Source: Escherichia coli (GTDB lineage: Bacteria > Pseudomonadota > Gammaproteobacteria > Enterobacterales > Enterobacteriaceae). From it: 64,000 nucleotides of DNA. The notes below the pieces were generated by a model. It was given only the letters and a program-made list of their open reading frames with translations, was not told the DNA's origin and searched no databases. The stretch lies in NCBI RefSeq assembly GCF_965641715.1, contig NZ_OZ282453.1; one strand, given 5' to 3'. A program made the position numbers and the translations under genes. This document shows, piece after piece, positions 15,034-44,186 of the stretch (position 1 is its first letter; every line of letters starts with the position of its first letter).

Positions 15034-15188
15034 GGGAGTTATTCTAGTTGCGAGTGAAGGTTTTGTTTTGACATTCAGTGCTGTCAAATACTTAAGAATA
15101 AGTTATTGATTTTAACCTTGAATTATTATTGCTTGATGTTAGGTGCTTATTTCGCCATTCCGCAATAATCTTAAAAAGTTCCCTTGAA

Positions 15189-23028: not shown

Positions 23029-23400
23029 GATGTGCCACATCCGGCAGGGTATGCCGGATGTGGCGTATGCTGATAAGACGCGTCAGCGTCGCATCAGGCA
23101 ACCGGCTCGGACGTTGGATGTCGGATGCGGCGTAACCGCCTTATCCGACCTGGCGGTTGCAGCACTTCACAGCGGTGTAGGCCTGATAAGACGCGCCAGC
23201 GTCGCATCAGGCAACCGGCTCGGGCGTTAGATGTCGGATGCGGCGTAACCGCCTTATCCGACCTGGCGGTTGCAGCACTTCACAACGGTGTAGGCCTGAT
23301 AAGACGCGCCAGCGTCGCATCAGGCAACCGGCCAGGGCGTTAGATGTCGGATGCGGCGTAACCGCTTTATCCAACCTACGGGGTGCCGCACTTCACAGCA
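23029..23400. repeat. REP hairpin plus tandem array of about three 113-bp BIME-like units
   Basis: Perfect 13-bp inverted repeat GCCACATCCGGCA/TGCCGGATGTGGC at 23033-23063. Unit TGATAAGACGCGCCAGCGTCGCATCAGGCAACCGGCTCGGGCGTTAGATGTCGGATGCGGCGTAACCGCCTTATCCGACCTGGCGGTTGCAGCACTTCACAACGGTGTAGGCC repeats at 23071, 23184 and 23297. Confidence 0.85.
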
Positions 23401-23402
23401 GT

Positions 23403-23891
23403 TTAGCGAACTACCGCGTTCTCAATCTTCTCTTCCGCCTTCCAGATGCGGTATTTCACATCCACATTGTCTGGCGTATACACCACGATCGGCAGCTTGC
23501 TGTTGTAACGCAGCATTCCGGTATCGCCGAGATATGCAGTGACAAATTTCTTCTCTTTCTTGCCATCCGGGCAGGCCATCATCGTGGAAACCGGCGAGCT
23601 AACTTTATCAAAGACATAATAATCATAGCCCCAGCCTTCCAGCGTTTTGCTTTCCAGCTTCCCACCGAGACGATGCAAATTGCAATCGACTTCCAGCGTC
23701 TGACCGATTAACAGTTCTACTTTCAGGGTAGATTCATCTTCTTGCGGGGTTAACTGAATCACCTGACGCTTCATGCCTTTTTCAGCTTGTGGATAAGGCG
23801 CGATTTTTTCCAGTGGCTGGACGCTCTCTGCCGCCCAGGCGGAAGTGGTGGCGAAAGCGGCAAACAATACTGCAGGTAGAATGGTCTTCAT
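23403..23891 (-). CDS. eco: Ecotin (periplasmic serine protease inhibitor)
   Basis: 162-aa [50 protein letters not shown]...; sequence recognised as ecotin. Confidence 0.95.
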
Positions 23892-24149
23892 TTTTTGCTT
23901 TCCTTCTTCATTTATAGGTTTGCACCGATGATGTCGCTGAAGGTTAACATATTCATCAGATTTATTAATTTGCTTTATGAATAACTTAAAGAATATTAAG
24001 ACAATTTTACCTGCTCTTTTAGTGTTAAATTCTGATGAGAGAGCAAACCAGCAGAAATATCTCTGGTGAATTAATCGCTATATAAATATATTTATAACCA
24101 TTTGAAATGTGAGCAAAAGCCCGTTTTTGCCACGCTTCCCGCCACTCTT

Positions 24150-24184
24150 TTGATCCTGCTACAGGTTTTACCTCGATCGGGGTA
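24150..24184 (+). promoter_or_regulatory. napF promoter elements: FNR-like site and NarP/NarL 7-2-7 site
   Basis: TTGATCCTGCTACA (24150-24163, FNR-like half sites) lies about 20 bp upstream of the centre of TACCTCG-AT-CGGGGTA (24169-24184, inverted heptamers). This spacing matches the described FNR/NarP architecture of napF. Confidence 0.6.
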
Positions 24185-24297
24185 TGCATCTTTGACACAT
24201 CCTTTAATATCTTAGCGGCTATAAAAATGGCTTATTAATTATGCGGTTTATTTGGTCGCTCTCAATTTTCAGAGCGCGTTAATGATGGAAGGTCAAT

Positions 24298-24792
24298 GTG
24301 AAGATTGATGCATCCCGTCGGGGCATACTCACTGGTCGCTGGCGCAAAGCCAGTAACGGTATCCGTCCGCCCTGGTCCGGTGATGAATCTCATTTTCTGA
24401 CCCATTGCACCCGCTGCGACGCCTGTATTAATGCTTGTGAAAACAACATCCTGCAACGCGGCGCGGGCGGCTATCCGAGCGTTAATTTCAAAAATAACGA
24501 GTGCAGCTTCTGTTACGCCTGCGCGCAGGCTTGCCCCGAATCGCTATTTTCTCCGCGCCACACCAGGGCCTGGGATTTGCAGTTCACCATTGGGGACGCG
24601 TGCCTGGCGTATCAGTCAGTTGAATGCCGCCGCTGTCAGGATAGCTGTGAGCCAATGGCAATTATCTTTCGCCCGACGCTCTCCGGGATCTACCAGCCGC
24701 AACTTAATAGCCAACTTTGCAACGGATGTGGAGCATGTGCAGCCAGCTGTCCGGTATCAGCCATAACTGCGGAGTATCTCCATGCACACTAA
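24298..24792 (+). CDS. napF: Ferredoxin-type protein NapF
   Basis: 164-aa ORF with GTG start; multiple CxxCxxC 4Fe-4S clusters. Confidence 0.93.
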   Translation: MKIDASRRGILTGRWRKASNGIRPPWSGDESHFLTHCTRCDACINACENNILQRGAGGYPSVNFKNNECSFCYACAQACPESLFSPRHTRAWDLQFTIGDACLAYQSVECRRCQDSCEPMAIIFRPTLSGIYQPQLNSQLCNGCGACAASCPVSAITAEYLHAH

Positions 24793-25045
24793 CTGGCAAG
24801 TTTGCAGCCTGGTCGTGCAGGCCAAAAGCGAACGAATTTCAGACATCAGCACCCAACTGAACGCCTTTCCCGGCTGTGAAGTTGCTGTCAGCGACGCGCC
24901 GAGCGGTCAGTTGATTGTGGTGGTGGAAGCAGAAGACAGCGAAACGCTGATCCAAACCATTGAGTCAGTACGCAACGTAGAGGGCGTGCTGGCGGTGTCG
25001 CTGGTTTATCACCAGCAGGAAGAGCAAGGTGAGGAAACACCATGA
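24782..25045 (+). CDS. napD: NapA chaperone NapD
   Basis: 87-aa [18 protein letters not shown]...; overlaps the napF 3' end by 11 nt. Confidence 0.92.
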
Positions 25046-27528
25046 AACTCAGTCGTCGTAGCTTTATGAAAGCTAACGCCGTTGCGGCCGCTGCGGCGGC
25101 TGCCGGTCTCAGCGTGCCGGGCGTTGCCCGCGCCGTTGTTGGTCAGCAGGAAGCCATTAAATGGGATAAAGCGCCGTGCCGTTTCTGCGGTACTGGTTGC
25201 GGCGTTCTGGTCGGAACGCAGCAGGGGCGTGTGGTGGCCTGTCAGGGCGACCCGGACGCACCGGTTAACCGTGGCCTGAACTGCATTAAGGGCTATTTCC
25301 TGCCCAAGATCATGTACGGTAAAGACCGTTTGACGCAGCCGCTGCTGCGTATGAAAAACGGTAAATATGACAAAGAAGGCGAATTTACCCCAATCACCTG
25401 GGATCAGGCCTTCGATGTGATGGAAGAGAAATTCAAAACCGCCCTGAAAGAAAAAGGGCCGGAATCGATCGGTATGTTCGGTTCTGGTCAGTGGACTATC
25501 TGGGAAGGTTATGCCGCGTCCAAACTGTTTAAAGCGGGCTTCCGTTCGAACAACATCGACCCGAACGCGCGTCACTGTATGGCGTCGGCAGTAGTTGGCT
25601 TTATGCGTACCTTTGGTATGGATGAGCCGATGGGCTGCTATGACGACATCGAGCAGGCTGACGCGTTTGTGCTGTGGGGCGCAAACATGGCGGAAATGCA
25701 CCCGATCCTCTGGTCGCGCATCACTAACCGTCGTCTCTCTAACCAGAACGTCACCGTGGCGGTGCTTTCTACCTACCAGCATCGTAGCTTCGAGCTGGCG
25801 GATAACGGCATCATCTTTACGCCGCAATCTGACCTGGTGATCCTGAACTACATCGCCAACTATATCATTCAAAACAATGCGATAAATCAGGACTTCTTTA
25901 GCAAACACGTTAACCTGCGCAAAGGTGCGACGGACATCGGCTACGGTTTACGTCCGACCCATCCGCTGGAAAAAGCAGCGAAGAATCCGGGTTCTGATGC
26001 TTCCGAACCGATGAGCTTTGAAGATTACAAAGCCTTCGTTGCTGAGTATACGCTGGAAAAAACCGCTGAAATGACCGGCGTGCCGAAAGACCAGTTAGAA
26101 CAACTGGCGCAGCTGTATGCCGATCCGAACAAGAAAGTCATCTCCTACTGGACGATGGGCTTCAACCAGCATACCCGTGGTGTATGGGCCAACAACCTGG
26201 TCTACAACCTGCACCTGCTGACCGGCAAAATTTCCCAGCCGGGTTGCGGTCCGTTCTCCCTGACCGGGCAGCCTTCTGCGTGTGGTACTGCGCGTGAAGT
26301 GGGCACCTTTGCTCACCGTCTGCCTGCGGACATGGTGGTGACTAACGAGAAACATCGTGATATCTGCGAGAAGAAGTGGAATATCCCGAGCGGCACCATT
26401 CCGGCAAAAATCGGTCTGCACGCGGTGGCACAAGACCGTGCGCTGAAAGACGGCAAGCTGAATGTTTACTGGACCATGTGTACCAACAACATGCAGGCCG
26501 GGCCGAACATCAATGAAGAGCGTATGCCGGGCTGGCGCGATCCGCGCAACTTCATCATCGTCTCCGATCCGTATCCGACAGTCAGTGCGCTGGCCGCCGA
26601 CTTGATCCTGCCGACCGCAATGTGGGTAGAAAAAGAGGGCGCTTACGGTAACGCCGAACGCCGTACTCAGTTCTGGCGTCAGCAAGTACAGGCACCTGGT
26701 GAAGCGAAATCGGATCTCTGGCAGTTAGTTCAGTTCTCCCGTCGCTTCAAAACCGAAGAAGTATGGCCGGAAGAGCTGCTGGCGAAGAAACCGGAACTGC
26801 GTGGCAAAACGCTGTACGAGGTTCTGTATGCCACCCCGGAAGTGAGCAAATTCCCGGTATCCGAACTGGCGGAAGATCAGCTGAACGATGAATCCCGCGA
26901 GCTGGGCTTCTATCTGCAAAAAGGGCTGTTCGAAGAGTACGCATGGTTTGGTCGTGGTCACGGTCACGATCTGGCACCGTTCGATGACTACCATAAAGCG
27001 CGCGGTCTGCGCTGGCCGGTGGTGAACGGTAAAGAAACTCAGTGGCGTTACAGCGAAGGTAACGACCCGTACGTGAAAGCGGGCGAAGGCTACAAGTTCT
27101 ACGGTAAACCGGATGGCAAAGCGGTGATCTTCGCACTGCCGTTCGAACCAGCGGCGGAAGCACCGGATGAAGAGTACGACCTGTGGCTCTCTACCGGACG
27201 CGTCCTGGAGCACTGGCACACCGGCAGTATGACTCGCCGTGTACCGGAACTGCACCGCGCCTTCCCGGAAGCGGTCCTGTTTATTCACCCGCTGGATGCG
27301 AAAGCGCGCGATCTGCGTCGTGGCGACAAAGTGAAAGTGGTTTCTCGCCGTGGCGAAGTGATCTCGATTGTCGAAACGCGCGGTCGTAACCGTCCGCCGC
27401 AGGGCCTGGTGTACATGCCGTTCTTCGACGCCGCACAGCTGGTTAACAAACTAACGCTGGACGCGACCGATCCGCTCTCGAAAGAGACGGACTTCAAGAA
27501 GTGCGCGGTCAAACTGGAGAAGGTGTAA
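25042..27528 (+). CDS. napA: Periplasmic nitrate reductase catalytic subunit NapA
   Basis: 828-aa ORF; twin-arginine signal ([28 protein letters not shown]); molybdopterin oxidoreductase with N-terminal Cys cluster. Confidence 0.96.
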
Positions 27529-27534
27529 GCCATT

Positions 27535-28230
27535 ATGTCCCGGTCAGCGAAACCTCAAAATGGTCGCCGCCGCTTTCTGCGCGATGTTGTTCGCACAGCA
27601 GGCGGGCTGGCTGCCGTGGGTGTGGCGCTGGGGTTACAACAGCAAACCGCACGCGCATCTGGCGTGCGGTTGCGCCCGCCCGGAGCCATAAACGAGAACG
27701 CCTTTGCCAGTGCCTGTGTGCGTTGTGGTCAGTGTGTTCAGGCTTGCCCTTACGACACCTTAAAACTGGCGACGCTGGCCTCTGGTCTGTCGGCGGGCAC
27801 GCCATATTTTGTCGCACGGGATATTCCTTGCGAAATGTGTGAGGACATTCCGTGCGCCAAAGTGTGCCCGAGCGGTGCGCTGGATCGTGAGATCGAATCG
27901 ATCGACGACGCGCGGATGGGGCTGGCGGTGCTGGTAGACCAGGAAAACTGTCTCAACTTTCAGGGGCTGCGCTGCGATGTTTGTTATCGCGAATGCCCGA
28001 AAATTGATGAGGCCATCACCCTGGAGCTGGAGCGCAACACGCGTACCGGTAAGCACGCCCGCTTTCTGCCGACGGTTCACAGCGACGCCTGTACTGGTTG
28101 CGGTAAGTGCGAAAAAGTGTGCGTGCTGGAACAACCGGCAATCAAGGTGTTACCGCTGTCACTGGCGAAAGGGGAGTTAGGTCACCATTACCGCTTCGGC
28201 TGGCTGGAGGGGAACAATGGCAAATCGTAA
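27535..28230 (+). CDS. napG: Ferredoxin-type protein NapG
   Basis: 231-aa ORF; Tat-like RRRFLR signal; four 4Fe-4S Cys motifs. Confidence 0.94.
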
Positions 28231-29080
28231 ACGTGACGCCGGGCGCGAGGCGCTGGAGAAAAAAGGCTGGTGGCGCAGTCACCGTTGGCTGGTGTTACGT
28301 CGCCTTTGTCAGTTCTTCGTGCTGGGGATGTTTTTGAGCGGTCCGTGGTTTGGTGTGTGGATCTTGCACGGCAACTACAGCAGTAGCCTGTTATTCGACA
28401 CCGTTCCGCTGACCGATCCGCTGATGACGCTGCAAAGTCTTGCCAGTGGTCATCTGCCTGCCACGGTGGCGTTGACCGGTGCGGTGATTATCACCGTGCT
28501 CTACGCCCTGGCAGGAAAGCGATTATTTTGCAGCTGGGTCTGCCCGCTGAACCCGATTACCGACTTAGCGAACTGGTTACGCAGGCGCTTTGACCTCAAT
28601 CAGTCTGCGACGATCCCTCGCCACATTCGCTACGTGCTGTTGGTGGTCATTCTGGTGGGATCAGCCTTAACTGGCACGCTCATCTGGGAATGGATCAACC
28701 CCGTTTCCCTGATGGGGCGTAGCCTGGTAATGGGCTTCGGCAGCGGCGCGCTGCTTATTCTCGCGCTGTTTTTATTTGATCTACTGGTCGTTGAACACGG
28801 CTGGTGCGGGCACATTTGTCCGGTTGGCGCGCTGTATGGCGTGCTGGGTAGCAAAGGTGTGATTACCGTTGCGGCCAGCGATCGGCAGAAATGTAACCGC
28901 TGTATGGATTGTTTTCATGTTTGCCCGGAACCGCATGTGCTACGTGCCCCGGTGCTGGATGAACAAAGCCCGGTGCAGGTCACCAGCCGCGATTGCATGA
29001 CGTGCGGTCGCTGCGTGGATGTCTGTTCTGAGGATGTATTTACAATAACTACACGATGGAGTTCGGGAGCGAAATCATGA
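28217..29080 (+). CDS. napH: Membrane-bound ferredoxin-type protein NapH
   Basis: 287-aa ORF; TM helices plus C-terminal CxxCxxCxxxCP motifs. Confidence 0.94.
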
Positions 29081-29526
29081 AAAGCCATGACCTGAAGAAA
29101 GCGCTGTGTCAATGGACGGCGATGCTGGCCCTGGTGGTAAGCGGCGCGGTTTGGGCGGCTAATGGCGTCGATTTTAGCCAGTCGCCGGAAGTATCCGGGA
29201 CGCAGGAAGGGGCCATTCGGATGCCAAAAGAGCAGGATCGGATGCCGCTGAACTATGTGAATCAGCCGCCAATGATCCCGCATAGCGTTGAAGGTTATCA
29301 GGTAACGACCAATACCAACCGCTGCTTGCAGTGCCACGGTGTCGAAAGCTATCGCACCACTGGCGCACCGCGTATCAGTCCTACTCACTTTATGGACAGC
29401 GACGGCAAAGTGGGCGCGGAAGTGGCTCCGCGTCGTTATTTCTGTCTGCAATGTCACGTACCGCAGGCCGATACCGCGCCAATCGTGGGGAATACCTTTA
29501 CCCCATCAAAAGGTTACGGGAAATAA
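29077..29526 (+). CDS. napB: Periplasmic nitrate reductase dihaem cytochrome c subunit NapB
   Basis: ORF 29056-29526 trimmed to ATG 29077 ([13 protein letters not shown]..., 149 aa); two CxxCH haem motifs (CLQCH twice); ATGA overlap with napH. Confidence 0.93.
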   Translation: MKSHDLKKALCQWTAMLALVVSGAVWAANGVDFSQSPEVSGTQEGAIRMPKEQDRMPLNYVNQPPMIPHSVEGYQVTTNTNRCLQCHGVESYRTTGAPRISPTHFMDSDGKVGAEVAPRRYFCLQCHVPQADTAPIVGNTFTPSKGYGK

Positions 29527-29535
29527 GAGGTTATT

Positions 29536-30138
29536 ATGGGAAATTCTGACCGTAAGCCTGGTCTGATTAAGCGCCTGTGGAAATGGTGGCGTACCCCCAG
29601 CCGTCTGGCGCTGGGGACGCTGCTGTTGATCGGTTTTGTCGGCGGCATCGTCTTCTGGGGCGGCTTTAACACTGGGATGGAAAAAGCCAATACCGAAGAG
29701 TTCTGCATTAGCTGCCACGAAATGCGTAACACGGTGTATCAGGAATACATGGATTCCGTGCACTACAACAACCGTAGCGGTGTCCGTGCGACCTGTCCGG
29801 ATTGTCACGTTCCGCACGAGTTTGTGCCGAAGATGATACGCAAGCTCAAAGCAAGTAAAGAGCTGTATGGTAAAATTTTTGGCGTTATTGACACGCCGCA
29901 GAAATTTGAAGCTCATCGCCTGACGATGGCACAGAATGAGTGGCGGCGCATGAAGGACAATAACTCGCAGGAGTGCCGTAACTGTCACAACTTCGAGTAT
30001 ATGGATACAACCGCCCAGAAATCGGTTGCCGCGAAGATGCATGACCAGGCGGTGAAAGATGGGCAAACCTGTATTGATTGCCATAAAGGGATAGCGCACA
30101 AGCTCCCCGATATGCGTGAAGTCGAGCCAGGTTTTTAA
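29536..30138 (+). CDS. napC: Tetrahaem cytochrome c quinol dehydrogenase NapC
   Basis: 200-aa ORF; four CxxCH motifs (CISCH, CPDCH, CRNCH, CIDCH); N-terminal TM anchor. Confidence 0.95.
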   Translation: MGNSDRKPGLIKRLWKWWRTPSRLALGTLLLIGFVGGIVFWGGFNTGMEKANTEEFCISCHEMRNTVYQEYMDSVHYNNRSGVRATCPDCHVPHEFVPKMIRKLKASKELYGKIFGVIDTPQKFEAHRLTMAQNEWRRMKDNNSQECRNCHNFEYMDTTAQKSVAAKMHDQAVKDGQTCIDCHKGIAHKLPDMREVEPGF

Positions 30139-30150
30139 CAGGGTTATTGC

Positions 30151-30774
30151 TTGGGTATGCTTGAAGCCAGAGAGTTACTTTGTGAGCGGGATGAACGAAC
30201 CTTATTTAGTGGTTTATCATTTACGCTGAACGCAGGAGAGTGGGTACAAATCACCGGTAGCAACGGCGCGGGGAAGACAACGCTTCTCCGTTTGCTGACG
30301 GGGTTGTCTCGCCCTGACGCAGGCGAGGTTCTCTGGCAAGGGCAGCCCTTGCATCAGGTACGCGACAGCTACCATCAAAACCTGTTATGGATAGGCCATC
30401 AGCCGGGGATCAAAACCCGGCTGACGGCGTTAGAAAATCTGCACTTTTATCATCGCGATGGCGATACCGCACAATGTCTGGAAGCCCTGGCGCAGGCCGG
30501 GCTTGCCGGATTCGAAGATATTCCGGTAAATCAACTTTCTGCCGGGCAACAACGCCGCGTCGCTTTAGCGCGTCTGTGGCTGACCCGTGCAACGTTATGG
30601 ATCCTCGACGAGCCTTTTACCGCGATTGACGTCAACGGCGTCGATCGTCTGACCCAGCGTATGGCGCAGCATACGGAGCAGGGAGGGATTGTGATTCTGA
30701 CCACCCACCAGCCGCTCAACGTTGCTGAAAGTAAAATCCGCCGCATTTCTCTGACGCATACAAGGGGCGAATGA
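30151..30774 (+). CDS. ccmA: Haem exporter ATP-binding protein CcmA
   Basis: 207-aa ORF; Walker [13 protein letters not shown] signature LSAGQQRR, Walker B ILDEP. Confidence 0.94.
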
Positions 30775-31433
30775 TGTTCTGGCGTATTTTCCGTCTTGAA
30801 CTGCGCATAGCGTTTCGCCATAGCGCCGAAATCGCCAACCCGCTGTGGTTCTTCCTGATTGTAATTACCCTTTTTCCGCTCAGTATCGGTCCGGAGCCGC
30901 AACTGCTGGCGCGTATTGCTCCGGGCATTATCTGGGTTGCTGCGCTGCTTTCATCCTTGCTGGCGCTGGAACGACTGTTCCGTGACGATTTGCAGGACGG
31001 CAGTCTTGAACAATTGATGTTGTTACCGTTACCCTTGCCCGCCGTTGTGCTGGCGAAGGTGATGGCGCACTGGATGGTAACCGGTCTGCCGTTACTCATC
31101 CTTTCGCCACTGGTAGCAATGCTACTGGGAATGGATGTTTATGGCTGGCAAGTGATGGCGTTAACGCTACTGCTGGGAACGCCTACGCTTGGCTTTCTCG
31201 GTGCACCGGGCGTGGCGCTGACAGTGGGACTTAAGCGCGGTGGTGTGCTGCTCAGCATACTGGTGTTACCGCTGACTATCCCATTACTCATCTTTGCCAC
31301 CGCCGCGATGGACGCGGCTTCCATGCATTTGCCCGTTGACGGGTATCTGGCAATTTTAGGCGCGTTGCTGGCAGGCACCGCGACATTAAGTCCTTTTGCG
31401 ACGGCGGCAGCGTTACGAATCAGCATTCAATAA
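30771..31433 (+). CDS. ccmB: Haem exporter membrane protein CcmB
   Basis: 220-aa polytopic membrane ORF; 4-nt overlap with ccmA. Confidence 0.94.
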
Positions 31434-31474
31434 CGCTGGATTACTGATTTTTGTTCGAGTCTGGTATCGAAACT

Positions 31475-32212
31475 ATGTGGAAAACACTGCATCAACTGGC
31501 GATCCCACCACGGCTGTATCAAATCTGTGGCTGGTTTATACCGTGGCTGGCAATTGCCAGTGTGGTCGTGCTTACCGTCGGCTGGATCTGGGGATTCGGC
31601 TTTGCTCCGGCTGATTATCAGCAGGGAAATAGCTACCGCATTATCTACCTGCATGTGCCTGCGGCGATCTGGTCGATGGGCATTTATGCATCAATGGCAG
31701 TGGCAGCGTTTATTGGCCTTGTCTGGCAGATGAAAATGGCCAACCTGGCGGTGGCGGCGATGGCCCCCATTGGTGCCGTGTTTACCTTTATTGCCCTGGT
31801 TACCGGCTCTGCATGGGGAAAACCGATGTGGGGCACCTGGTGGGTATGGGATGCACGTCTGACTTCTGAACTGGTGCTGCTGTTTTTGTATGTGGGTGTG
31901 ATTGCCCTGTGGCACGCCTTCGACGACCGCCGTCTGGCGGGCCGTGCGGCAGGTATCCTGGTGCTGATTGGCGTGGTGAATCTGCCGATTATTCATTACT
32001 CCGTGGAGTGGTGGAACACCCTGCATCAGGGATCAACGCGAATGCAGCAAAGTATCGATCCGGCGATGCGTTCGCCGCTGCGCTGGTCGATTTTTGGCTT
32101 CCTGCTGCTGTCTGCCACGCTGACGCTGATGCGGATGCGTAATTTGATTTTGCTGATGGAAAAACGCCGTCCGTGGGTGAGTGAACTGATACTGAAAAGA
32201 GGCCGTAAATGA
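31475..32212 (+). CDS. ccmC: Haem exporter / haem lyase protein CcmC
   Basis: ORF 31451-32212 trimmed to ATG 31475 (MWKTLHQL..., 245 aa); WGxxWxWD tryptophan-rich motif (WGTWWVWDARL). Confidence 0.93.
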   Translation: MWKTLHQLAIPPRLYQICGWFIPWLAIASVVVLTVGWIWGFGFAPADYQQGNSYRIIYLHVPAAIWSMGIYASMAVAAFIGLVWQMKMANLAVAAMAPIGAVFTFIALVTGSAWGKPMWGTWWVWDARLTSELVLLFLYVGVIALWHAFDDRRLAGRAAGILVLIGVVNLPIIHYSVEWWNTLHQGSTRMQQSIDPAMRSPLRWSIFGFLLLSATLTLMRMRNLILLMEKRRPWVSELILKRGRK

Positions 32213-32418
32213 CCCCTGCATTTGCTTCCTGGAATGAATTTTTCGCAATGGGCGGTTACGCCTTTTTTGTCTGGCTGGCGGTGGTGATGACCGTGATTCC
32301 GCTGGTGGTTTTAGTCGTGCACTCGGTGATGCAGCATCGCGCAATTCTGCGTGGCGTGGCGCAACAGCGGGCGCGTGAGGCGCGTTTACGTGCTTCGCAA
32401 CAGCAGGAGGCTGCATGA
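32209..32418 (+). CDS. ccmD: Haem exporter protein CcmD
   Basis: 69-aa single-TM ORF; ATGA overlaps with ccmC and ccmE. Confidence 0.92.
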
Positions 32419-32894
32419 ATATTCGCCGTAAAAACCGCTTGTGGATTGCCTGTGCTGTGTTGGCAGGTTTGGCGCTGACTATCGGTCTGGTGCTATATGC
32501 GCTGCGCTCGAATATCGATCTCTTTTATACGCCGGGGGAGATTCTCTACGGCAAGCGTGAAACTCAGCAGATGCCGGAAGTTGGGCAGCGTCTGCGCGTT
32601 GGCGGGATGGTGATGCCGGGTAGCGTGCAGCGCGATCCCAATTCGCTGAAAGTGACCTTCACCATTTACGACGCTGAAGGCTCAGTGGATGTCTCTTACG
32701 AAGGCATTTTGCCGGATCTGTTCCGTGAAGGGCAGGGCGTTGTGGTGCAGGGCGAGCTGGAAAAAGGCAATCATATCCTCGCGAAAGAAGTGCTGGCGAA
32801 ACACGATGAAAACTACACACCGCCAGAAGTTGAGAAAGCGATGGAAGCTAACCACCGTCGCCCGGCGAGTGTTTATAAGGACCCAGCATCATGA
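32415..32894 (+). CDS. ccmE: Cytochrome c-type biogenesis haem chaperone CcmE
   Basis: 159-aa [22 protein letters not shown]...; haem-binding His in the [10 protein letters not shown] segment. Confidence 0.94.
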
Positions 32895-34834
32895 TGCCGG
32901 AAATTGGTAACGGGCTGCTGTGCCTGGCGCTGGGAATTGCGCTGCTGCTGTCCGTGTATCCGCTATGGGGCGTGGCGCGCGGAGATGCGCGCATGATGGC
33001 GTCTTCCCGCTTGTTTGCCTGGCTGCTGTTTATGTCTGTGGCTGGCGCATTTCTGGTGCTGGTCAATGCTTTCGTGGTCAACGACTTTACCGTCACCTAT
33101 GTTGCCAGCAACTCCAATACCCAGCTTCCGGTGTGGTATCGCGTGGCGGCTACCTGGGGCGCGCATGAAGGCTCGCTACTGCTGTGGGTGCTGCTGATGA
33201 GCGGCTGGACCTTTGCGGTGGCGATTTTTAGTCAGCGTATTCCGCTGGATATTGTGGCCCGCGTACTGGCGATAATGGGGATGGTCAGCGTCGGCTTTTT
33301 GCTGTTCATTCTCTTTACCTCTAACCCATTCTCACGCACGCTGCCGAACTTCCCGATTGAAGGGCGCGATCTTAACCCGCTGTTACAGGATCCGGGGCTG
33401 ATCTTCCATCCGCCTCTGCTTTATATGGGGTACGTGGGTTTCTCGGTGGCGTTTGCTTTTGCCATTGCTTCTTTGCTGAGCGGGCGTTTGGACAGCACTT
33501 ATGCGCGTTTTACTCGCCCGTGGACGCTGGCGGCGTGGATTTTCCTGACGCTCGGCATTGTGCTCGGTTCCGCATGGGCCTATTACGAACTCGGCTGGGG
33601 TGGCTGGTGGTTCTGGGATCCGGTAGAAAACGCCTCGTTTATGCCGTGGCTGGTGGGGACTGCGCTGATGCACTCACTTGCGGTCACTGAACAACGCGCC
33701 AGCTTCAAAGCGTGGACATTACTGCTGGCAATCAGTGCCTTCTCGTTGTGTCTGTTGGGGACTTTCCTCGTGCGTTCCGGCGTGCTGGTATCGGTACACG
33801 CGTTTGCGTCTGATCCGGCGCGCGGTATGTTTATCCTCGCCTTTATGGTGCTGGTGATTGGCGGTTCGCTGCTGCTGTTTGCCGCGCGTGGACACAAAGT
33901 TCGCTCACGCGTAAACAATGCGCTGTGGTCGCGGGAATCTTTGCTGTTAGCGAACAACGTTTTGCTGGTCGCCGCGATGCTGGTGGTGTTGCTGGGGACG
34001 CTGCTGCCGCTGGTGCACAAGCAACTGGGACTGGGCAGTATTTCGATTGGCGAACCGTTCTTCAACACCATGTTTACCTGGCTGATGGTGCCGTTTGCGC
34101 TACTGCTGGGTGTCGGTCCTCTGGTGCGCTGGGGGCGCGATCGCCCACGTAAAATCCGCAATTTATTGATTATCGCCTTCATCTCTACGCTGGTGCTGTC
34201 TCTGCTGTTGCCGTGGCTCTTCGAAAGCAAAGTTGTGGCGATGACGGTGCTCGGCCTGGCAATGGCCTGCTGGATTGCGGTGCTGGCAATTGCGGAAGCT
34301 GCGCTACGTATTTCACGCGGCACGAAAACCACCTTCAGTTATTGGGGGATGGTGGCGGCTCACCTGGGGCTGGCAGTGACAATTGTTGGCATTGCCTTTA
34401 GCCAGAACTATAGCGTTGAGCGTGATGTGCGCATGAAGTCCGGCGATAGCGTCGATATTCATGAATATCGCTTCACCTTCCGTGATGTCAAAGAGGTGAC
34501 TGGCCCGAACTGGCGTGGCGGTGTGGCGACTATCGGCGTAACGCGAGATGGCAAGCCGGAAACGGTGCTGTATGCGGAAAAACGTTATTACAACACTGCC
34601 GGGTCGATGATGACCGAAGCGGCAATTGACGGCGGCATCACGCGTGACCTGTACGCCGCGCTCGGTGAAGAACTGGAAAACGGTGCCTGGGCTGTTCGTC
34701 TCTACTACAAACCTTTTGTTCGCTGGATCTGGGCGGGCGGGCTGATGATGGCGCTGGGCGGGCTGCTGTGCCTGTTTGATCCTCGCTATCGTAAGCGCGT
34801 GAACCCGCAGAAAACTGCGCCGGAGGCTGTATGA
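32891..34834 (+). CDS. ccmF: Cytochrome c haem lyase subunit CcmF
   Basis: 647-aa polytopic membrane ORF with tryptophan-rich [12 protein letters not shown] motif. Confidence 0.95.
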
Positions 34835-35388
34835 AGCGCAAAGTATTGTTAATTCCGTTGATTATCTTCCTGGCGATTGCCGCGGCGCTGCTGTGGCAGC
34901 TGGCGCGTAATGCCGAAGGGGATGATCCGACCAATCTGGAATCGGCGCTCATTGGCAAGCCTGTGCCGAAGTTTCGTCTCGAATCACTGGACAATCCGGG
35001 GCAGTTTTATCAGGCGGATGTGCTGACTCAGGGCAAACCAGTGCTGCTTAACGTCTGGGCGACCTGGTGTCCGACCTGCCGTGCGGAACATCAATATCTG
35101 AATCAGCTTTCAGCGCAGGGCATTCGCGTGGTCGGCATGAACTATAAAGACGATCGCCAGAAGGCAATCAGCTGGCTGAAAGAGCTGGGCAATCCTTACG
35201 CGCTAAGCCTGTTTGATGGCGACGGCATGTTAGGGCTGGATCTCGGTGTCTATGGCGCGCCAGAAACGTTTCTTATTGACGGCAACGGCATCATTCGCTA
35301 TCGCCATGCGGGCGATCTGAATCCTCGCGTCTGGGAAGAAGAGATCAAGCCGCTGTGGGAGAAATACAGTAAGGAGGCCGCACAATGA
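34831..35388 (+). CDS. ccmG: Thiol:disulfide interchange protein CcmG/DsbE
   Basis: 185-aa ORF; thioredoxin-like WCPTC active site; N-terminal membrane anchor. Confidence 0.95.
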   Translation: MKRKVLLIPLIIFLAIAAALLWQLARNAEGDDPTNLESALIGKPVPKFRLESLDNPGQFYQADVLTQGKPVLLNVWATWCPTCRAEHQYLNQLSAQGIRVVGMNYKDDRQKAISWLKELGNPYALSLFDGDGMLGLDLGVYGAPETFLIDGNGIIRYRHAGDLNPRVWEEEIKPLWEKYSKEAAQ

Positions 35389-36437
35389 GGTTTTTATTGG
35401 GCGTGCTGATGCTGATGATCTCCGGCTCAGCGCTGGCGACCATCGATGTGTTGCAGTTTAAAGATGAAGCACAGGAACAACAGTTCCGTCAGCTCACTGA
35501 AGAACTGCGTTGCCCGAAATGCCAGAACAACAGCATTGCCGATTCCAACTCGATGATTGCCACCGACCTGCGCCAGAAAGTGTATGAACTGATGCAGGAA
35601 GGTAAAAGTAAGAAAGAGATTGTTGATTATATGGTGGCGCGTTACGGCAACTTCGTCACTTACGATCCGCCGTTAACGCCGCTGACCGTGCTGCTGTGGG
35701 TGCTGCCAGTAGTGGCTATTGGCATTGGCGGTTGGGTCATTTACGCCCGCTCGCGGCGTCGGGTACGCGTGGTGCTGGAAGCGTTTCCTGAACAAAGCGT
35801 GCCGGAAGGTAAGCGTGCCGGATATGTTGTTTATCTGCCGGGTATTGTGGTGGCGTTAATTGTGGCTGGCGTCAGCTACTACCAGACTGGCAATTATCAG
35901 CAGGTGAAAATCTGGCAGCAGGCCACGGCACAGGCTCCGGCGTTGCTGGACAGGGCGCTGGATCCGAAAGCCGATCCGCTCAACGAAGAAGAGATGTCGC
36001 GCCTTGCGCTGGGGATGCGTACTCAACTGCAAAAAAATCCGGGAGATATAGAAGGTTGGATTATGTTGGGTCGCGTTGGCATGGCGCTGGGTAACGCCAG
36101 TATCGCCACCGATGCATACGCTACTGCGTATCGCCTCGATCCGAAAAACAGCGATGCCGCACTGGGTTATGCTGAAGCGTTGACACGTTCATCTGATCCC
36201 AACGACAACCGCCTCGGCGGCGAACTGCTGCGCCAGTTGGTGAGAACGGACCATAGCAATATTCGTGTGTTAAGCATGTATGCGTTTAATGCCTTTGAGC
36301 AGCAGCGATTTGGCGAAGCCGTTGCCGCGTGGGAGATGATGTTGAAACTCTTACCTGCCAACGATACTCGCCGTGCGGTGATTGAACGTAGTATCGCGCA
36401 GGCGATGCAACATTTGTCGCCGCAGGAGAGTAAATAA
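35385..36437 (+). CDS. ccmH: Cytochrome c haem lyase subunit CcmH
   Basis: 350-aa ORF; LRCPKC motif; C-terminal TPR-like domain. Confidence 0.94.
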   Translation: MRFLLGVLMLMISGSALATIDVLQFKDEAQEQQFRQLTEELRCPKCQNNSIADSNSMIATDLRQKVYELMQEGKSKKEIVDYMVARYGNFVTYDPPLTPLTVLLWVLPVVAIGIGGWVIYARSRRRVRVVLEAFPEQSVPEGKRAGYVVYLPGIVVALIVAGVSYYQTGNYQQVKIWQQATAQAPALLDRALDPKADPLNEEEMSRLALGMRTQLQKNPGDIEGWIMLGRVGMALGNASIATDAYATAYRLDPKNSDAALGYAEALTRSSDPNDNRLGGELLRQLVRTDHSNIRVLSMYAFNAFEQQRFGEAVAAWEMMLKLLPANDTRRAVIERSIAQAMQHLSPQESK

Positions 36438-36496
36438 AAAGTGGCCCGATGGTGATTCCATCAGGCCAGACTGATGACAAAGTGCGCTTAGTTTAT

Positions 36497-36595
36497 GCCG
36501 GATGCGGCGTGAACGCCTTATCCGGCCTACACAATCGTGTGAATTCAATAAATTGATCGATCCGCGTAGGCCTGATAAGCGTAGCGCATCAGGCA
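36497..36595. repeat. BIME (pair of inverted REP elements)
   Basis: GCCGGATGCGGCGTGAACGCCTTATCCGGCCTAC (36497-36530) and inverted partner GTAGGCCTGATAAGCGTAGCGCATCAGGC (36566-36594). Confidence 0.8.
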
Positions 36596-36617
36596 GTTTT
36601 GCGTTTGTCATAAATCT

Positions 36618-36652
36618 CAGCCCGATGATAAATCCATCGGGCTATTTTTATT
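36618..36652 (+). terminator. Intrinsic terminator at the end of the nap-ccm operon; overlaps the narP stop
   Basis: AGCCCGATG...CATCGGGCT hairpin followed by ATTTTTATT. Confidence 0.6.
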
Positions 36653-37295
36653 GTGCCCCGCGTTGTTGCAGGAACAGAATGGTGGCTGCCACGCGTGAGC
36701 GGACATTGAGTTTGCGCAGCAGATTGCGAATATGTACTTTTACTGTCTGCTCTGAAATATTCAACACCGAGGCAATCTGTTTATTTGACAGCCCCTGTGC
36801 CAGCTCGTGCAGAACATCCAGCTCGCGCTCCGTCAGCACGCTGAAGGGATCTTCTTCCGCGCCAAACATTTCACGTTCATGTAAGTACTGATTGACGCGT
36901 TCGCTAAAGACTTTGCTGCCTTTCGCTCCGGCACGAATCGCTTCCAGCAACACTTCCGGGTCGCTGTCTTTCAACAGATAACCGTCTGCGCCTGCGTCTA
37001 TCAGTGCAAAGACATCGCTGGAGGCATCTGATACGGTCAAGATAATAATTTGCGCGGTAACGCCATCCCTGCGCAAGGCATTGAGGGTATCCAGGCCACT
37101 CATACCTTTCATATTCAGATCCAGCAAGATCACGTCGATATCCAGTCTATTCGCCAGATCGATCGCGCTCGCGCCGTCGCCCGCTTCGGCGACCACTTCA
37201 AAGCCAGGATCAAGCTCCAGTAACTGACGAACACCGCGTCGCATAAGTGGATGATCATCCACAATCATCACCTGAAAAGGCGTTGCTTCAGGCAT
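36648..37295 (-). CDS. narP: Nitrate/nitrite response regulator NarP
   Basis: ORF 36648-37325 trimmed to ATG 37295 (MPEATPFQVMIVDDHPLMRRG..., 215 aa); receiver plus LuxR-type HTH. Confidence 0.93.
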   Translation of the reverse strand: MPEATPFQVMIVDDHPLMRRGVRQLLELDPGFEVVAEAGDGASAIDLANRLDIDVILLDLNMKGMSGLDTLNALRRDGVTAQIIILTVSDASSDVFALIDAGADGYLLKDSDPEVLLEAIRAGAKGSKVFSERVNQYLHEREMFGAEEDPFSVLTERELDVLHELAQGLSNKQIASVLNISEQTVKVHIRNLLRKLNVRSRVAATILFLQQRGAQ

Positions 37296-37614
37296 AGTAG
37301 TCTCCTGAGGTTTTATTAGAATCATTATGTTTGAGCGTAGCGTTGGTAACGCTACCAGGCGCGTGAATGTTACCCCATTTTATGTATGGACATGTAGTGA
37401 AAACTACAACCTTGCCGTTCGCTTTGGCATCATTTTCATTATAAAGACGGAATTTTGCATCAGCTTCTCATCAAGAAAAACAACTAAAAAATCAATCACA
37501 ATACTTGTGCATTTCTTTAAACAGTTTTTAAAAACTGATTCCGGGTATGGAGCTATGGGTATTTTCTGTACCCAATGCTTTTAACAGCAATTAATTTCAT
37601 AGGATGAAAGCTCA

Positions 37615-40206
37615 ATGCATCAATCTGGTTCTGTTTCTCTTTGTCGTTCCGCAATATCTGTTCTGGTGGCTACAGCGTTATATTCACCCATAGCATTGGC
37701 ATCAACAGTTGAGTATGGTGAGACAGTTGATGGTGTTGTCCTGGAAAAAGATATCCAGCTGGTTTATGGGACCGCCAATAATACGAAAATCAATCCTGGC
37801 GGAGAACAGCATATTAAAGAATTTGGTATAAGTAGTAATACTGAAATTAACGGCGGGTATCAGTACATTGAAATGAATGGCACCGCAGAATACTCCGTAT
37901 TAAATGATGGTTATCAAATTGTTCAAATGGGTGGCGCGGCAAACCAGACTACCCTCAATAATGGTGTGCTACAGGTTTATGGCGCAGCGAATGATCCCAC
38001 GATTAAAGGCGGGCGCTTAATCGTTGAAAAAGATGGGATTACCGTCCTTGCCGCTATCGAAAAGGGAGGATTACTGGAGGTTAAAGAGGGGGGATTAGCG
38101 ATTGCGGTAGATCAGAAAGCAGGCGGTGCTATTAAAGCAACCACGCGGGTCATGGAGGTATTCGGAACAAACCGTCTCGGTCAGTTCGATATCAAGAATG
38201 GAATTGCAAACAATATGCTGTTGGAAAACGGCGGAAGTTTGCGAGTTGAAGAAAATGACTTCGCTTATAATACTACTGTAGATAGTGGCGGCTTACTGGA
38301 GGTTATGGATGGCGGGACTGCAACTGGCGTTGATAAAAAAGCAGGCGGAAAATTAATTGTCTCAACGAATGCGCTGGAAGTGAGTGGTACAAACAGTAAA
38401 GGCCAATTTAGTATAAAAGATGGTGTGTCAAAAAATTATGAACTGGATGATGGTTCCGGGCTTATTGTTATGGAGGACACGCAGGCCATTGACACTATCC
38501 TCGATGAGCATGCCACTATGCAATCGCTGGGAAAGGATACTGGTACGAGAGTGCAGGCAAATGCGGTATATGATCTCGGTCGATCAGATCAGAATGGAAG
38601 TATAACGTATTCCTCTAAAGCCATCTCTGAAAATATGGTTATCAACAATGGCCGCGCTAACGTCTGGGCTGGCACAATGGTTAACGTTTCAGTCAGAGGG
38701 AATGATGGCATTCTTGAGGTCATGAAGCCGCAAATAAATTATGCACCCGCAATGTTGGTGGGTAAGGTAGTGGTTTCTGAGGGCGCTTCTTTTAGAACGC
38801 ATGGTGCCGTGGATACCAGCAAAGCGGACGTTTCGCTCGAAAATAGCGTATGGACCATCATTGCCGATATCACTACGACGAACCAAAACACCCTCCTCAA
38901 CTTAGCCAACCTTGCGATGTCTGACGCAAATGTGATTATGATGGATGAGCCAGTGACTCGTTCATCTGTGACGGCAAGTGCGGAAAATTTCATTACGTTG
39001 ACCACCAATACCCTGTCGGGAAACGGCAATTTTTATATGCGTACCGATATGGCTAATCATCAGAGCGATCAGCTCAACGTCACCGGTCAGGCAACAGGTG
39101 ATTTCAAAATATTCGTGACGGACACCGGTGCCAGCCCGGCAGCAGGAGATAGCCTTACACTGGTAACAACGGGCGGCGGTGATGCTGCATTTACGTTGGG
39201 CAATGCCGGAGGCGTTGTTGATATCGGTACGTATGAATATACCTTGCTGGATAATGGTAACCATAGCTGGAGTCTGGCAGAGAATCGCGCGCAAATTACC
39301 CCTTCAACCACTGATGTGCTAAATATGGCGGCAGCACAACCGCTGGTATTTGATGCAGAACTGGACACCGTGCGTGAGCGTCTTGGTAGCGTAAAAGGCG
39401 TTAGTTACGATACGGCGATGTGGAGTTCGGCAATTAACACCCGCAACAACGTGACCACTGATGCGGGAGCTGGTTTTGAGCAAACATTGACGGGCCTGAC
39501 GCTCGGTATCGATAGCCGTTTCTCCCGTGAAGAAAGCAGTACAATTCGCGGCTTGTTCTTTGGTTACTCTCATTCTGATATTGGTTTTGATCGCGGCGGA
39601 AAAGGTAATATCGATAGCTATACCCTGGGGGCTTATGCCGGTTGGGAGCATCAGAACGGTGCCTATGTTGATGGGGTGGTGAAAGTTGACCGTTTTGCCA
39701 ACACCATCCATGGCAAGATGAGTAATGGGGCAACAGCGTTTGGCGATTACAATAGTAACGGCGCGGGTGCTCATGTTGAGAGCGGGTTCCGTTGGGTTGA
39801 CGGATTGTGGAGTGTTAGACCCTATCTGGCCTTTACCGGCTTTACCACAGATGGTCAGGACTACACGTTATCAAACGGCATGCGCGCGGACGTGGGAAAT
39901 ACCCGGATATTACGCGCTGAAGCGGGAACGGCGGTAAGCTATCACATGGACCTGCAAAACGGTACGACGCTGGAACCCTGGCTGAAAGCCGCCGTGCGTC
40001 AGGAATACGCCGATTCTAACCAGGTGAAAGTTAATGACGATGGCAAATTTAATAATGATGTGGCTGGAACCAGTGGCGTTTATCAGGCTGGGATAAGGTC
40101 ATCGTTTACCCCGACGTTAAGCGGTCATTTGTCAGTCAGCTATGGCAATGGCGCAGGGGTAGAATCGCAGTGGAATACTCAGGCGGGTGTGGTCTGGACG
40201 TTCTGA
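37615..40206 (+). CDS. yejO: Autotransporter adhesin-like protein YejO, uninterrupted
   Basis: 863-aa ORF; signal peptide (SVLVATALYSPIALA/STVE); repetitive Gly/Asn-rich passenger region; C-terminal beta-barrel translocator ending ...QAGVVWTF (terminal aromatic). Confidence 0.85.
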   Translation: MHQSGSVSLCRSAISVLVATALYSPIALASTVEYGETVDGVVLEKDIQLVYGTANNTKINPGGEQHIKEFGISSNTEINGGYQYIEMNGTAEYSVLNDGYQIVQMGGAANQTTLNNGVLQVYGAANDPTIKGGRLIVEKDGITVLAAIEKGGLLEVKEGGLAIAVDQKAGGAIKATTRVMEVFGTNRLGQFDIKNGIANNMLLENGGSLRVEENDFAYNTTVDSGGLLEVMDGGTATGVDKKAGGKLIVSTNALEVSGTNSKGQFSIKDGVSKNYELDDGSGLIVMEDTQAIDTILDEHATMQSLGKDTGTRVQANAVYDLGRSDQNGSITYSSKAISENMVINNGRANVWAGTMVNVSVRGNDGILEVMKPQINYAPAMLVGKVVVSEGASFRTHGAVDTSKADVSLENSVWTIIADITTTNQNTLLNLANLAMSDANVIMMDEPVTRSSVTASAENFITLTTNTLSGNGNFYMRTDMANHQSDQLNVTGQATGDFKIFVTDTGASPAAGDSLTLVTTGGGDAAFTLGNAGGVVDIGTYEYTLLDNGNHSWSLAENRAQITPSTTDVLNMAAAQPLVFDAELDTVRERLGSVKGVSYDTAMWSSAINTRNNVTTDAGAGFEQTLTGLTLGIDSRFSREESSTIRGLFFGYSHSDIGFDRGGKGNIDSYTLGAYAGWEHQNGAYVDGVVKVDRFANTIHGKMSNGATAFGDYNSNGAGAHVESGFRWVDGLWSVRPYLAFTGFTTDGQDYTLSNGMRADVGNTRILRAEAGTAVSYHMDLQNGTTLEPWLKAAVRQEYADSNQVKVNDDGKFNNDVAGTSGVYQAGIRSSFTPTLSGHLSVSYGNGAGVESQWNTQAGVVWTF

Positions 40207-43793: not shown

Positions 43794-44186
<393 letters not shown>

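Follow-up and report, generated by a model that had tools for sequence, protein, structure and literature searches.

An ordinary nap-ccm locus of Escherichia coli whose overlapping genes are probably coupled in blocks

The fifteen co-directional open reading frames at 24298-36437 (+) of the window, by which we mean the whole 64,000-nucleotide stretch of E. coli DNA that was analyzed, make up napFDAGHBC-ccmABCDEFGH. The best explanation, to which we assign a probability of roughly 0.9, is that this is the standard and ordinary E. coli aeg-46.5 nap-ccm locus, in which overlapping genes are probably coupled in translation. How the locus is ordered and regulated is already known and has stood in textbooks since the 1990s; the preliminary description of this DNA had likewise called the block well known. 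The napFDAGHBC products would constitute the periplasmic nitrate reductase, with NapA as the catalytic subunit, NapD as its chaperone, NapB and NapC as c-type cytochromes and NapG, NapH and NapF as iron-sulfur proteins. The ccmABCDEFGH products would provide System I cytochrome c maturation, as required by the cytochromes NapB and NapC.

None of the fifteen frames is broken (Table 1). NCBIfam models were passed by NapF, D, A, G, H, B and C, as well as by CcmA, B, C, D, E, F and G (DsbE). CcmH scored below the NCBIfam cut-off and combines an NrfF-like N-terminal part with a TPR (NrfG-like) C-terminal part. Besides the family models, matches of CcmA and CcmC to PDB 7F02 identify the system as System I. 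The gene coordinates agree one-to-one with RefSeq (PGAP, strain ET350) and, after mapping, with K-12 MG1655, such that the identities, order and positions given in the preliminary description all match models and annotation. In K-12 (b2208-b2194), the 15 genes agree with those of the window in order, length and junction distance, and the flanks are shared, with eco and yojO upstream and a convergent narP downstream. Nucleotide identity to K-12 is 98.2% over 14.6 kb in a single alignment; the best RefSeq E. coli matches reach 98.8-99.0%. The 189 nucleotide differences between the block and K-12 translate into 10 amino-acid differences, the ccmA start codon apart, including Q203H, A206G and A207E in the C-terminal tail of CcmA. 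Downstream, yejO is intact in the window and IS5-disrupted in K-12. The motifs found are the NapA twin-arginine signal, two CxxCH in NapB and four in NapC, the 4Fe-4S cysteines of NapF, NapG and NapH (NapF with three CxxCxxCxxxC), the CcmA Walker A and signature motifs, WWD in CcmC and CcmF, His130 of CcmE, CxxC of CcmG and LRCxxC of CcmH. With few amino-acid changes and every cofactor or catalytic motif present, the function of the block appears to be retained.

Table 1 Features of the nap-ccm block and its flanks. Distances to the preceding gene are in nucleotides (negative, overlap; positive, gap) and were read from the sequence.
Feature	Coordinates	Strand	Distance	Description
ModE-like palindrome CGCTATATAAATATATTTATAACC	24076..24099	+		putative, read from sequence; upstream of napF
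FNR-like site TTGATcctgCTACA	24150..24163	+		putative; 3 mismatches to TTGAT-N4-ATCAA
NarP/NarL 7-2-7 heptamer pair TACCTCGatCGGGGTA	24169..24184	+		putative
napF	24298..24792	+		164 aa, GTG start, ferredoxin-type; TIGR00402 248 bits; coordinates same in PGAP and K-12
napD	24782..25045	+	-11	87 aa, NapA chaperone; NF007840 168 bits
napA	25042..27528	+	-4 (ATGA)	828 aa, catalytic subunit; TIGR01706 1655 bits; SRRSFMK Tat motif
napG	27535..28230	+	+6	231 aa; NF007012 416 bits
napH	28217..29080	+	-14	287 aa; NF007013 471 bits
napB	29077..29526	+	-4 (ATGA)	149 aa, dihaem cytochrome c
napC	29536..30138	+	+9	200 aa, tetrahaem quinol dehydrogenase; NF007906 463 bits; four CxxCH
Candidate extended -10 TGGTAAAAT	29868..29876	+		inside napC, ~275 nt upstream of ccmA; possible internal ccmA promoter
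ccmA	30151..30774	+	+12	207 aa, TTG start; NF010061 332 bits
ccmB	30771..31433	+	-4 (ATGA)	220 aa; TIGR01190 318 bits
ccmB-ccmC spacer	31434..31474	+		41 nt; main break of overlap chain
ccmC	31475..32212	+	+41	245 aa, ATG start; WGTWWVWD motif
ccmD	32209..32418	+	-4 (ATGA)	69 aa; TIGR03141
ccmE	32415..32894	+	-4 (ATGA)	159 aa, haem chaperone; NF009635 322 bits; H130 in HDENY
ccmF	32891..34834	+	-4 (ATGA)	647 aa, haem lyase subunit; TIGR00353 1016 bits
ccmG/dsbE	34831..35388	+	-4 (ATGA)	185 aa; NF011941 422 bits; CPTC motif
ccmH	35385..36437	+	-4 (ATGA)	350 aa; NrfF-like residues 5-120, NrfG-like TPR 154-334; LRCPKC
Terminator-like hairpin and T-run	36619..36652	+		abuts narP stop codon; consensus scan only

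Joint transcription of the nap and ccm genes would start at the napF promoter, which is under anaerobic and nitrate control, and a promoter inside napC would probably contribute as well. The napF control region differs from that of K-12 at 3 of 298 positions. The assignment of the ModE-like palindrome presumes the K-12 napF control region, in which ModE lies near -133.5. The FNR-like site precedes the NarP site by 20 bp, which fits the -64.5/-44.5 geometry. At three mismatches, however, the FNR pattern has 327 matches in the window and the site is not significant alone; nor is the NarP/NarL site, as at up to two mismatches 2 matches in 64 kb compare with 2.6 expected by chance. The NarP site of K-12 is a perfect palindrome, TACCCCGATCGGGGTA, whereas the window carries C>T at 24173.

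According to published work, nap and ccm belong to one operon and are activated together anaerobically (PMC10937671, PMC3893208). The preliminary description called the whole a super-operon. This term suits Escherichia, Citrobacter and Salmonella with their close relatives; other Enterobacterales among the 80 loci compared have no fusion, a partial one or an inverted one. In 29 of the 80, ccmA directly follows napC; 11 loci, all from Providencia, have only ccmC-H after nap, in 7 from Pectobacterium/Samsonia ccm is inverted, and the remaining loci have no ccm genes within 10 kb. Unlike in the window, nap and ccm are unlinked in Serratia, Edwardsiella, Yersinia and Pantoea, and Yersinia and Pantoea also miss napGH. 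The nap-ccm fusion is thus lineage-restricted.

Such restriction would also suit a pair of neighboring transcription units, in which the napF promoter serves napFDAGHBC and ccmABCDEFGH has a promoter of its own inside napC; "super-operon" would then overstate the linkage. We regard this as possible, albeit rather doubtful. In its favor, ccmA has no Shine-Dalgarno (SD) sequence, a start other than ATG and a 12-nt gap before it, and the extended -10-like TGGTAAAAT, the single TGnTAnnnT match on the plus strand within napC, may correspond to a published ccmA promoter. Tanapongpipat et al. 1998 reportedly described a promoter of ccmA inside napC. Nonetheless, the window shows no enrichment of the pattern and the motif is kept in the 3 Escherichia loci only, while the separation of napC and ccmA is just 12 nt, with no terminator-like site found there by the scan. 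Promoter-like sites in the block number 6, against 9.9 expected, and neither the promoter nor the terminator scan shows enrichment. An internal promoter would, moreover, add to read-through from napF rather than replace it, and joint anaerobic activation within the nap operon, as published, also speaks against separate units.

Turning from transcription to the junction geometry, the overlap lengths claimed earlier for ten junctions proved numerically exact, eight of the ten being ATGA. The view of them as one coupled serial chain is not overturned but needs qualifying, as the chain breaks at +9, +12 and +41. With four junctions that do not overlap, and with +41 in a range (~38 nt) that left hardly any reinitiation in experiments (Huber et al. 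2023, PMC10666635), the chain is modular rather than continuous. Nine of the 14 junctions fall in the -8..+6 class, to which 24% of all unidirectional gene pairs in E. coli belong (PMC10666635); there are two further overlaps of 11 and 14 nt, and the junctions at +9, +12 and +41 do not qualify. The corresponding binomial P of 0.0014 overstates the enrichment, because the baseline includes pairs that span different operons.

Conservation of the distances is better evidence against chance than this P value. Across the 80 Enterobacterales loci, for which the number scored varies by junction, the distance seen most often at each junction, genera taken together, is the one found in the window, and the internal geometry of nap and of ccmC-H is near-invariant. 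In nap, napF and napD overlap in 72/72 loci (by 11 nt in 48), napD/A is -4 in 65/73, napG/H -14 in 52/61 and napH/B -4 in 55/61, while +6 and +5 are the commonest gaps at napA/G (43/56). In ccm, a distance of -4 is found at ccmA/B in 26/28 loci, at ccmC/D in 28/39 (-1 in 8/39), at ccmD/E in 39/39, at ccmE/F in 38/38, at ccmF/G in 34/36 and at ccmG/H in 35/36. By contrast, ccmB/C ranges from +28 to +149 across 28 loci, and no overlap occurs at napA/G, napC/ccmA or ccmB/C in the scored loci. The ccmB-ccmC spacer contains REP-like palindromes in other genera, with ~18 nt adjoining the ATG conserved.

From this geometry and the SD motifs, we infer coupling at the nap-ccm junctions, probably by termination-reinitiation within napF-D-A, napG-H-B, ccmA-B and ccmC-D-E-F-G-H. 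The likely blocks would be napFDA(G), with napG loosely attached at +6, napGHB, napC, ccmAB and ccmCDEFGH. Anti-SD pairing lies within the top 10% of background at 13 of the 15 starts, the exceptions being ccmA and ccmC, and at all ten overlapping junctions it does so at -5.8 kcal/mol or stronger. When five native ATGA pairs of E. coli were examined experimentally, four proved strictly coupled and bioBF did not (Huber et al. 2019, PMC6728339). As in the tested pairs (PMC6728339, PMC10666635), the eight ATGA junctions here mostly have the SD inside the upstream gene. The overlaps of napF/D and napG/H are longer than the experimentally studied -8..+6 class, and +9, +12 and +41 are in the range of weak or absent coupling. 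Among gene pairs with short overlaps, those encoding subunits of complexes are 4.5-fold enriched (PMC10666635), and the overlapping pairs here are partners in known complexes, namely NapD-NapA, NapG-NapH, CcmA-B, CcmC-D-E and CcmF-H. NapA in complex with NapD is the stated subject of PMC4159696, structures of CcmABCD/E have been solved, and the coupling blocks match known complexes.

It should be considered that the overlaps could also be a neutral by-product of start/stop turnover and genome compaction, with each gene initiating independently at its own SD. Throughout the prokaryotes, no spacing of co-directional genes is commoner than -4 (PMC10666635), the majority of downstream genes in the block have a good SD of their own, such that de novo initiation is possible, and bioBF is uncoupled despite its ATGA overlap. 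We nevertheless consider this unlikely, as genera in which NapC is only 74-90% identical still share precisely these distances, even the odd -11 and -14, as gapped junctions drift freely, which demonstrates that spacing can change where unconstrained, and as the tested ATGA pairs were mostly strictly coupled (PMC6728339). Probable coupling within blocks is thus the reading that we retain.

Initiation at napC, ccmA and ccmC would then be largely de novo. No SD sequence was found for ccmA, the anti-SD pairing of which (-3.3 kcal/mol) is at background level. The TTG start of ccmA, where K-12 has GTG, was absent from the preliminary description. It is a minority allele (90 of 5,426 genomes), PGAP places the ccmA start at TTG in genomes carrying it, and the product matches PDB 7F02_A over residues 1-206. 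The weak ccmA and ccmC start sites may limit Ccm output. The boundaries before these two genes coincide with evolutionary breakpoints, Providencia keeping napC followed by ccmC-H without ccmAB.

Only for napB and ccmC do the starts in the open-reading-frame track differ from the annotation, in 2 of 15 genes. The longest frames begin at 29056 for napB and at TTG 31451 for ccmC, while the PGAP and K-12 starts both map to 29077 and to ATG 31475, with no differing reference start for either gene. The preliminary description had called the longer starts over-extended, which PGAP, K-12 and cross-genus comparison all bear out; its warning that they would mislead automated annotation applies to a naive longest-ORF caller only, as PGAP calls both correctly. 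The NapB model (149 positions) aligns from residue 8 of the long napB frame, and PDB 7F02_C (residues 1-245) matches the long ccmC frame from residue 9 to residue 253. The napB ATGA junction is kept in 56/61 loci, 18 of which (in Providencia, Edwardsiella, Serratia and Hafnia) have no in-frame start between the preceding in-frame stop and the ATGA; in Providencia, a change that is silent in napH gives rise to this upstream stop. The ATG/MWKTLHQL start of ccmC is conserved in 28/28 loci. In-frame stops in many genera thus exclude both longer forms, and comparison of the sequences gives 29077 and 31475 as the correct starts. That the longer forms are nonetheless real is very improbable: each of their starts is the first start codon past an in-frame stop, and the napB ATG at -7 occurs in many Enterobacteriaceae, but this ATG falls on a conserved Trp codon of napH, pairing at 29056 is +0.9 kcal/mol (no SD) against -6.6 at 29077 (GGGAG), 22/25 non-Escherichia loci lack an in-frame start upstream of the conserved ccmC ATG, just as the 18 loci do for napB, and curated K-12, PGAP and PDB entries use the short forms.

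At the other end of the block, the hairpin with its T-run is the likely, predicted 3' end of the ccm transcript. The likely narP terminator adjoins the ccmH stop codon, as the likely ccm terminator adjoins that of narP. If both terminators are true, the operon and its activator gene would have ~200 nt of complementary 3' UTR; more speculatively, this could allow antisense feedback between narP and the operon.

The practical outcomes of the check are the modular rather than continuous nature of the overlap chain and the lineage-specific nature of the nap-ccm fusion. Some practical value also lies in the cross-genus evidence, beyond citing annotation, that a longest-ORF rule misplaces the starts of napB and ccmC. 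As a tentative proposal with a low chance of being right, the operon may consist of conserved coupling modules, between which ccmA and ccmC act as uncoupled entry points that are deliberately weak. It is similarly conceivable, if improbable, that ccmA (GTG/TTG, no SD, +12) and ccmC (no SD, +41, REP-tolerant) could keep Ccm protein low relative to Nap although both are made from one mRNA. The minority TTG allele of ccmA could slightly alter Ccm expression.

The nap-ccm operon and its gene starts are already known, and the finding is correct and ordinary; what the analysis adds are refinements only, namely a probably modular pattern of coupling, a lineage-restricted nap-ccm fusion and a minority TTG start. 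In the mechanical list of longest ORFs, 24298-36437 (+) is occupied by a ladder of 15 co-directional ORFs, 14 of which exceeded the curated NCBIfam cut-offs (NapF, NapD, NapA, NapG, NapH, NapB, NapC, CcmA, CcmB, CcmC, CcmD, CcmE, CcmF and DsbE/CcmG). The fifteenth is of the CcmH type; its N-terminal part is NrfF-like, its C-terminal part NrfG-like and TPR-containing. NapA carries SRRSFMK, NapB and NapC contain two and four CxxCH motifs, respectively, and Fe-S motifs are found in NapF, NapG and NapH. CcmA presents Walker A and LSAGQ motifs, CcmC and CcmF both carry WWD motifs, and CcmE H130, CcmG CPTC and CcmH LRCPKC are all present. The annotations of strain ET350 (PGAP) and K-12 MG1655 (curated) both correspond one-to-one with the window, where positions equal those of L001 plus 21499. 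This is the aeg-46.5 locus of E. coli, and the family models and both annotations bear out its preliminary description as well known.

By megablast, 5,417 of the 5,426 complete E. coli genomes carry 24000-36700, the highest identity being 99.0%. As the best RefSeq match reached only this value, a divergent or decaying copy was considered and rejected, since all 15 ORFs are full length, all motifs are kept and the proteins differ little from those of K-12. Relative to the K-12 block, there are 189 nucleotide differences and only 10 amino-acid differences apart from the ccmA start codon, pointing to strong purifying selection. A mobile element within the operon, prompted by the approximately 38 matching places per genome, was likewise rejected, as REP/BIME copies in the ccmH-narP spacer are the source of these matches.

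These copies lie between two similar hairpins of the convergent spacer. The T-runs of the hairpins are opposed, such that each gene's likely terminator abuts the stop codon of the other gene, and this reading of the sequence implies that the ccmH and narP 3' UTRs would be complementary over ~200 nt. In other genera, the spacer measures 9-140 nt and contains one hairpin or a REP. An Rfam scan of the whole window found no RNA family within the block; matches elsewhere are listed below. MicF, the tRNA and the L25 leader reach gathering score, and five naRNA4 copies make up two tandem clusters, of which one separates mqo from eco a short way upstream of the block.

Coordinates of candidate control sites and neighbouring features in the window
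Feature	Position	Strand	Remark
naRNA4 cluster	11090-11280	+	REP-derived nucleoid-associated RNA
MicF sRNA	14941-15034	-	Rfam
naRNA4 cluster	23068-23376	-	REP-derived nucleoid-associated RNA
yojO	24025-24189	-	small annotated gene, within napF control region, opposite strand
ModE-like palindrome	24076-24099		upstream of napF, read from sequence
FNR-like site	24150-24163		upstream of napF, read from sequence
NarP/NarL 7-2-7 site	24169-24184		upstream of napF, read from sequence; differs from K-12 at 24173
Promoter-like site for yojO	24238-24265	-	TTGAGA-16-CATAAT; overlaps napF leader
Extended -10 motif in napC	29868-29876	+	candidate ccmA promoter
ccmH-narP spacer	36438-36647		convergent
Hairpin	36442-36468		T-run on minus strand
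REP/BIME copies	~36488-36596
Hairpin	36619-36643		T-run on plus strand
narP	36648-37325	-	over-extended in ORF track, 225 aa; annotated as 215 aa at 36648-37295
yejO autotransporter ORF	37615-40206	+	863 aa; intact here, IS5-inserted in K-12
tRNA	40311-40384	-	Rfam
L25 ribosomal-protein leader	44100-44125	-	Rfam

Consensus scanning of 23700-37700 yielded 6 promoter-like sites where 9.9 were expected, i.e. no enrichment, and the + strand of the block has none. Terminator-like sites showed a mild excess (24 vs 15.8 expected), with the top scorers in the ccmH-narP spacer. Searches with the FNR and NarP consensus sequences returned matches upstream of napF that are not significant alone. At the napF promoter, FNR and NarP reportedly bind at -64.5 and -44.5, respectively, according to Darwin, Stewart and colleagues; the spacing of the putative sites in the window fits this geometry, and the transcription start would then fall near 24221. 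The 7-2-7 site reads TACCTCGATCGGGGTA in the window, whereas K-12 has the perfect palindrome TACCCCGATCGGGGTA. Tanapongpipat et al. are said to have described, in 1998, an extended -10 type ccmA promoter inside napC. The + strand of napC contains a single match to this motif, TGGTAAAAT, kept only in the three Escherichia loci, which is a candidate for that internal promoter.

The ORF track and the annotations differ in the starts of only two of the 15 genes, napB and ccmC, both of which the preliminary description held to be over-extended in the track. PGAP, K-12 and the comparison across genera agree with that view, and as neither annotation gives a start other than 29077 (napB) or 31475 (ccmC), the earlier interpretation stands. 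The warning that automated annotation would be misled holds for a naive longest-ORF caller, not for PGAP, which called both starts correctly. For napB, the track starts at 29056, where there is no SD (anti-SD pairing +0.9 kcal/mol), while the ATG at 29077 has GGGAG at 7-nt spacing (-6.6 kcal/mol). In the long ORF, the match to the NapB model (149 positions) begins at residue 8, and the short N-terminus, MKSHDLKK..., looks like a typical signal peptide. ATGA is retained at the junction in 56/61 loci, and in 18 loci of Providencia, Edwardsiella, Serratia and Hafnia there is no in-frame start between the preceding in-frame stop and this ATGA; in Providencia, a napH-synonymous change has created that stop. 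The upstream ATG persists because it falls on a conserved napH Trp codon (…RWSSGAKS*). For ccmC, the track starts at a TTG (31451), an 8-codon extension confined to Escherichia loci. The annotated ATG and the N-terminal MWKTLHQL are conserved in 28/28 loci, and 22 of 25 non-Escherichia loci have no in-frame start between the preceding in-frame stop and the ATG, making the extension impossible there. In the solved E. coli CcmABCD structures, CcmC is the 245-residue form.

At ccmA, the start at 30151 is TTG in the window and GTG in K-12 and ET350. This TTG start is a minority allele that the preliminary description missed: 90 of the 5,426 complete E. coli genomes contain the exact 41-mer centred on it, and where the allele is carried PGAP still places the ccmA start at the TTG. 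An ATG lies two codons downstream, at 30157 (window 30151-30159). The codon-1 GTG is conserved in 15 of the 29 loci with ccmA directly after napC, four of which lack an ATG at codon 3; in other Citrobacter species the ATG is the only one of the two. The sequence offers two candidate starts for E. coli ccmA, codon 1 and the ATG.

For the conservation of junctions, the 15 genes were mapped by tblastn onto 80 Enterobacterales loci around NapC homologues (10-kb flanks), and junctions were then measured. Every overlap length reported earlier was exact upon re-measurement, and eight of the overlaps are of the ATGA type.

Junction distances (negative, overlap; positive, gap) and their conservation
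Junction	Window (nt)	Loci
napF/D	-11	-11 in 48/72; overlap of some length in 72/72
napD/A	-4	-4 in 65/73
napA/G	+6	+6 and +5 commonest, 43/56
napG/H	-14	-14 in 52/61
napH/B	-4	-4 in 55/61
napB/C	+9
napC/ccmA	+12	range +3 to +20
ccmA/B	-4	-4 in 26/28
ccmB/C	+41	range +28 to +149
ccmC/D	-4
ccmD/E	-4	-4 in 39/39
ccmE/F	-4	-4 in 38/38
ccmF/G	-4	-4 in 34/36
ccmG/H	-4	-4 in 35/36

Nine of the 14 junctions fall at -8 to +6 nt, a class that holds 707/2,987 (24%) of E. coli unidirectional gene pairs, with 7% at +9 to +12 nt (PMC10666635). The resulting binomial P of 0.0014 overstates the case, as this baseline includes pairs outside single operons. Conservation is the stronger argument against chance: overlapping junctions are close to invariant, while napA/G, napC/ccmA and ccmB/C never overlap among the loci measured. 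Spacing is thus held where genes overlap and free elsewhere. In four loci (L011, L027, L028 and L034), a 33-132 nt repeat, which we take to be ERIC-like from short matches to the ERIC core, replaces the final napH codons and breaks the napH/napB overlap, with the GGGAG SD remnant and the napB ATG retained.

Of five native E. coli ATGA pairs tested, four showed strict coupling (PMC6728339), and reinitiation drops steeply with distance, +14 nt costing 40-80% and ~+38 nt nearly abolishing it (PMC10666635). On this geometry, the probable coupled blocks would be napF-D-A (with napG at +6), napG-H-B, ccmA-B and ccmC-D-E-F-G-H, and napC (+9), ccmA (+12) and ccmC (+41) would be largely independent translation entries. 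Coupling would accordingly be modular rather than continuous along the block. The blocks match known physical partners (NapD-NapA, NapG-NapH, CcmA-CcmB, CcmC-D-E and CcmF-H), and subunits of complexes are 4.5-fold enriched among short overlaps (PMC10666635).

The nap-ccm fusion is itself lineage-restricted, and the term super-operon applies to the 29 of 80 loci with ccmA directly after napC (Escherichia, Salmonella, Citrobacter, Leclercia, Trabulsiella and relatives), not to loci where ccm is partial, inverted or absent within 10 kb. No ccm genes lie within 10 kb in 31 loci (Serratia, Edwardsiella, Atlantibacter, Yersinia, Pantoea and others), the ccm cluster is inverted downstream of nap in seven (Pectobacterium, Samsonia), and two (Cedecea, Hafnia) have too little downstream sequence to judge. 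In 11 Providencia loci (L016, L030, L031, L033, L036-L040, L045 and L046), ccmCDEFGH begins 136-686 nt beyond the end of napFDAGHBC; ccmAB are absent from these loci and are thus elsewhere or missing. Together with the ccmB/C gap, this arrangement marks the ccmB/ccmC boundary as both a probable coupling break and an evolutionary breakpoint. The spacer there contains REP-like palindromes in other genera, and the ~18 nt adjoining the ccmC ATG, GAGTCTGGTGACTGAACT, with a GGTGA SD-like core, are conserved across genera.

Anti-SD pairing is in the top 10% of background at 13 of 15 starts, the exceptions being ccmA (-3.3 kcal/mol) and ccmC (-3.0 kcal/mol), each of which heads a ccm module. We infer that these weak entries may keep Ccm output below Nap output on the shared transcript.
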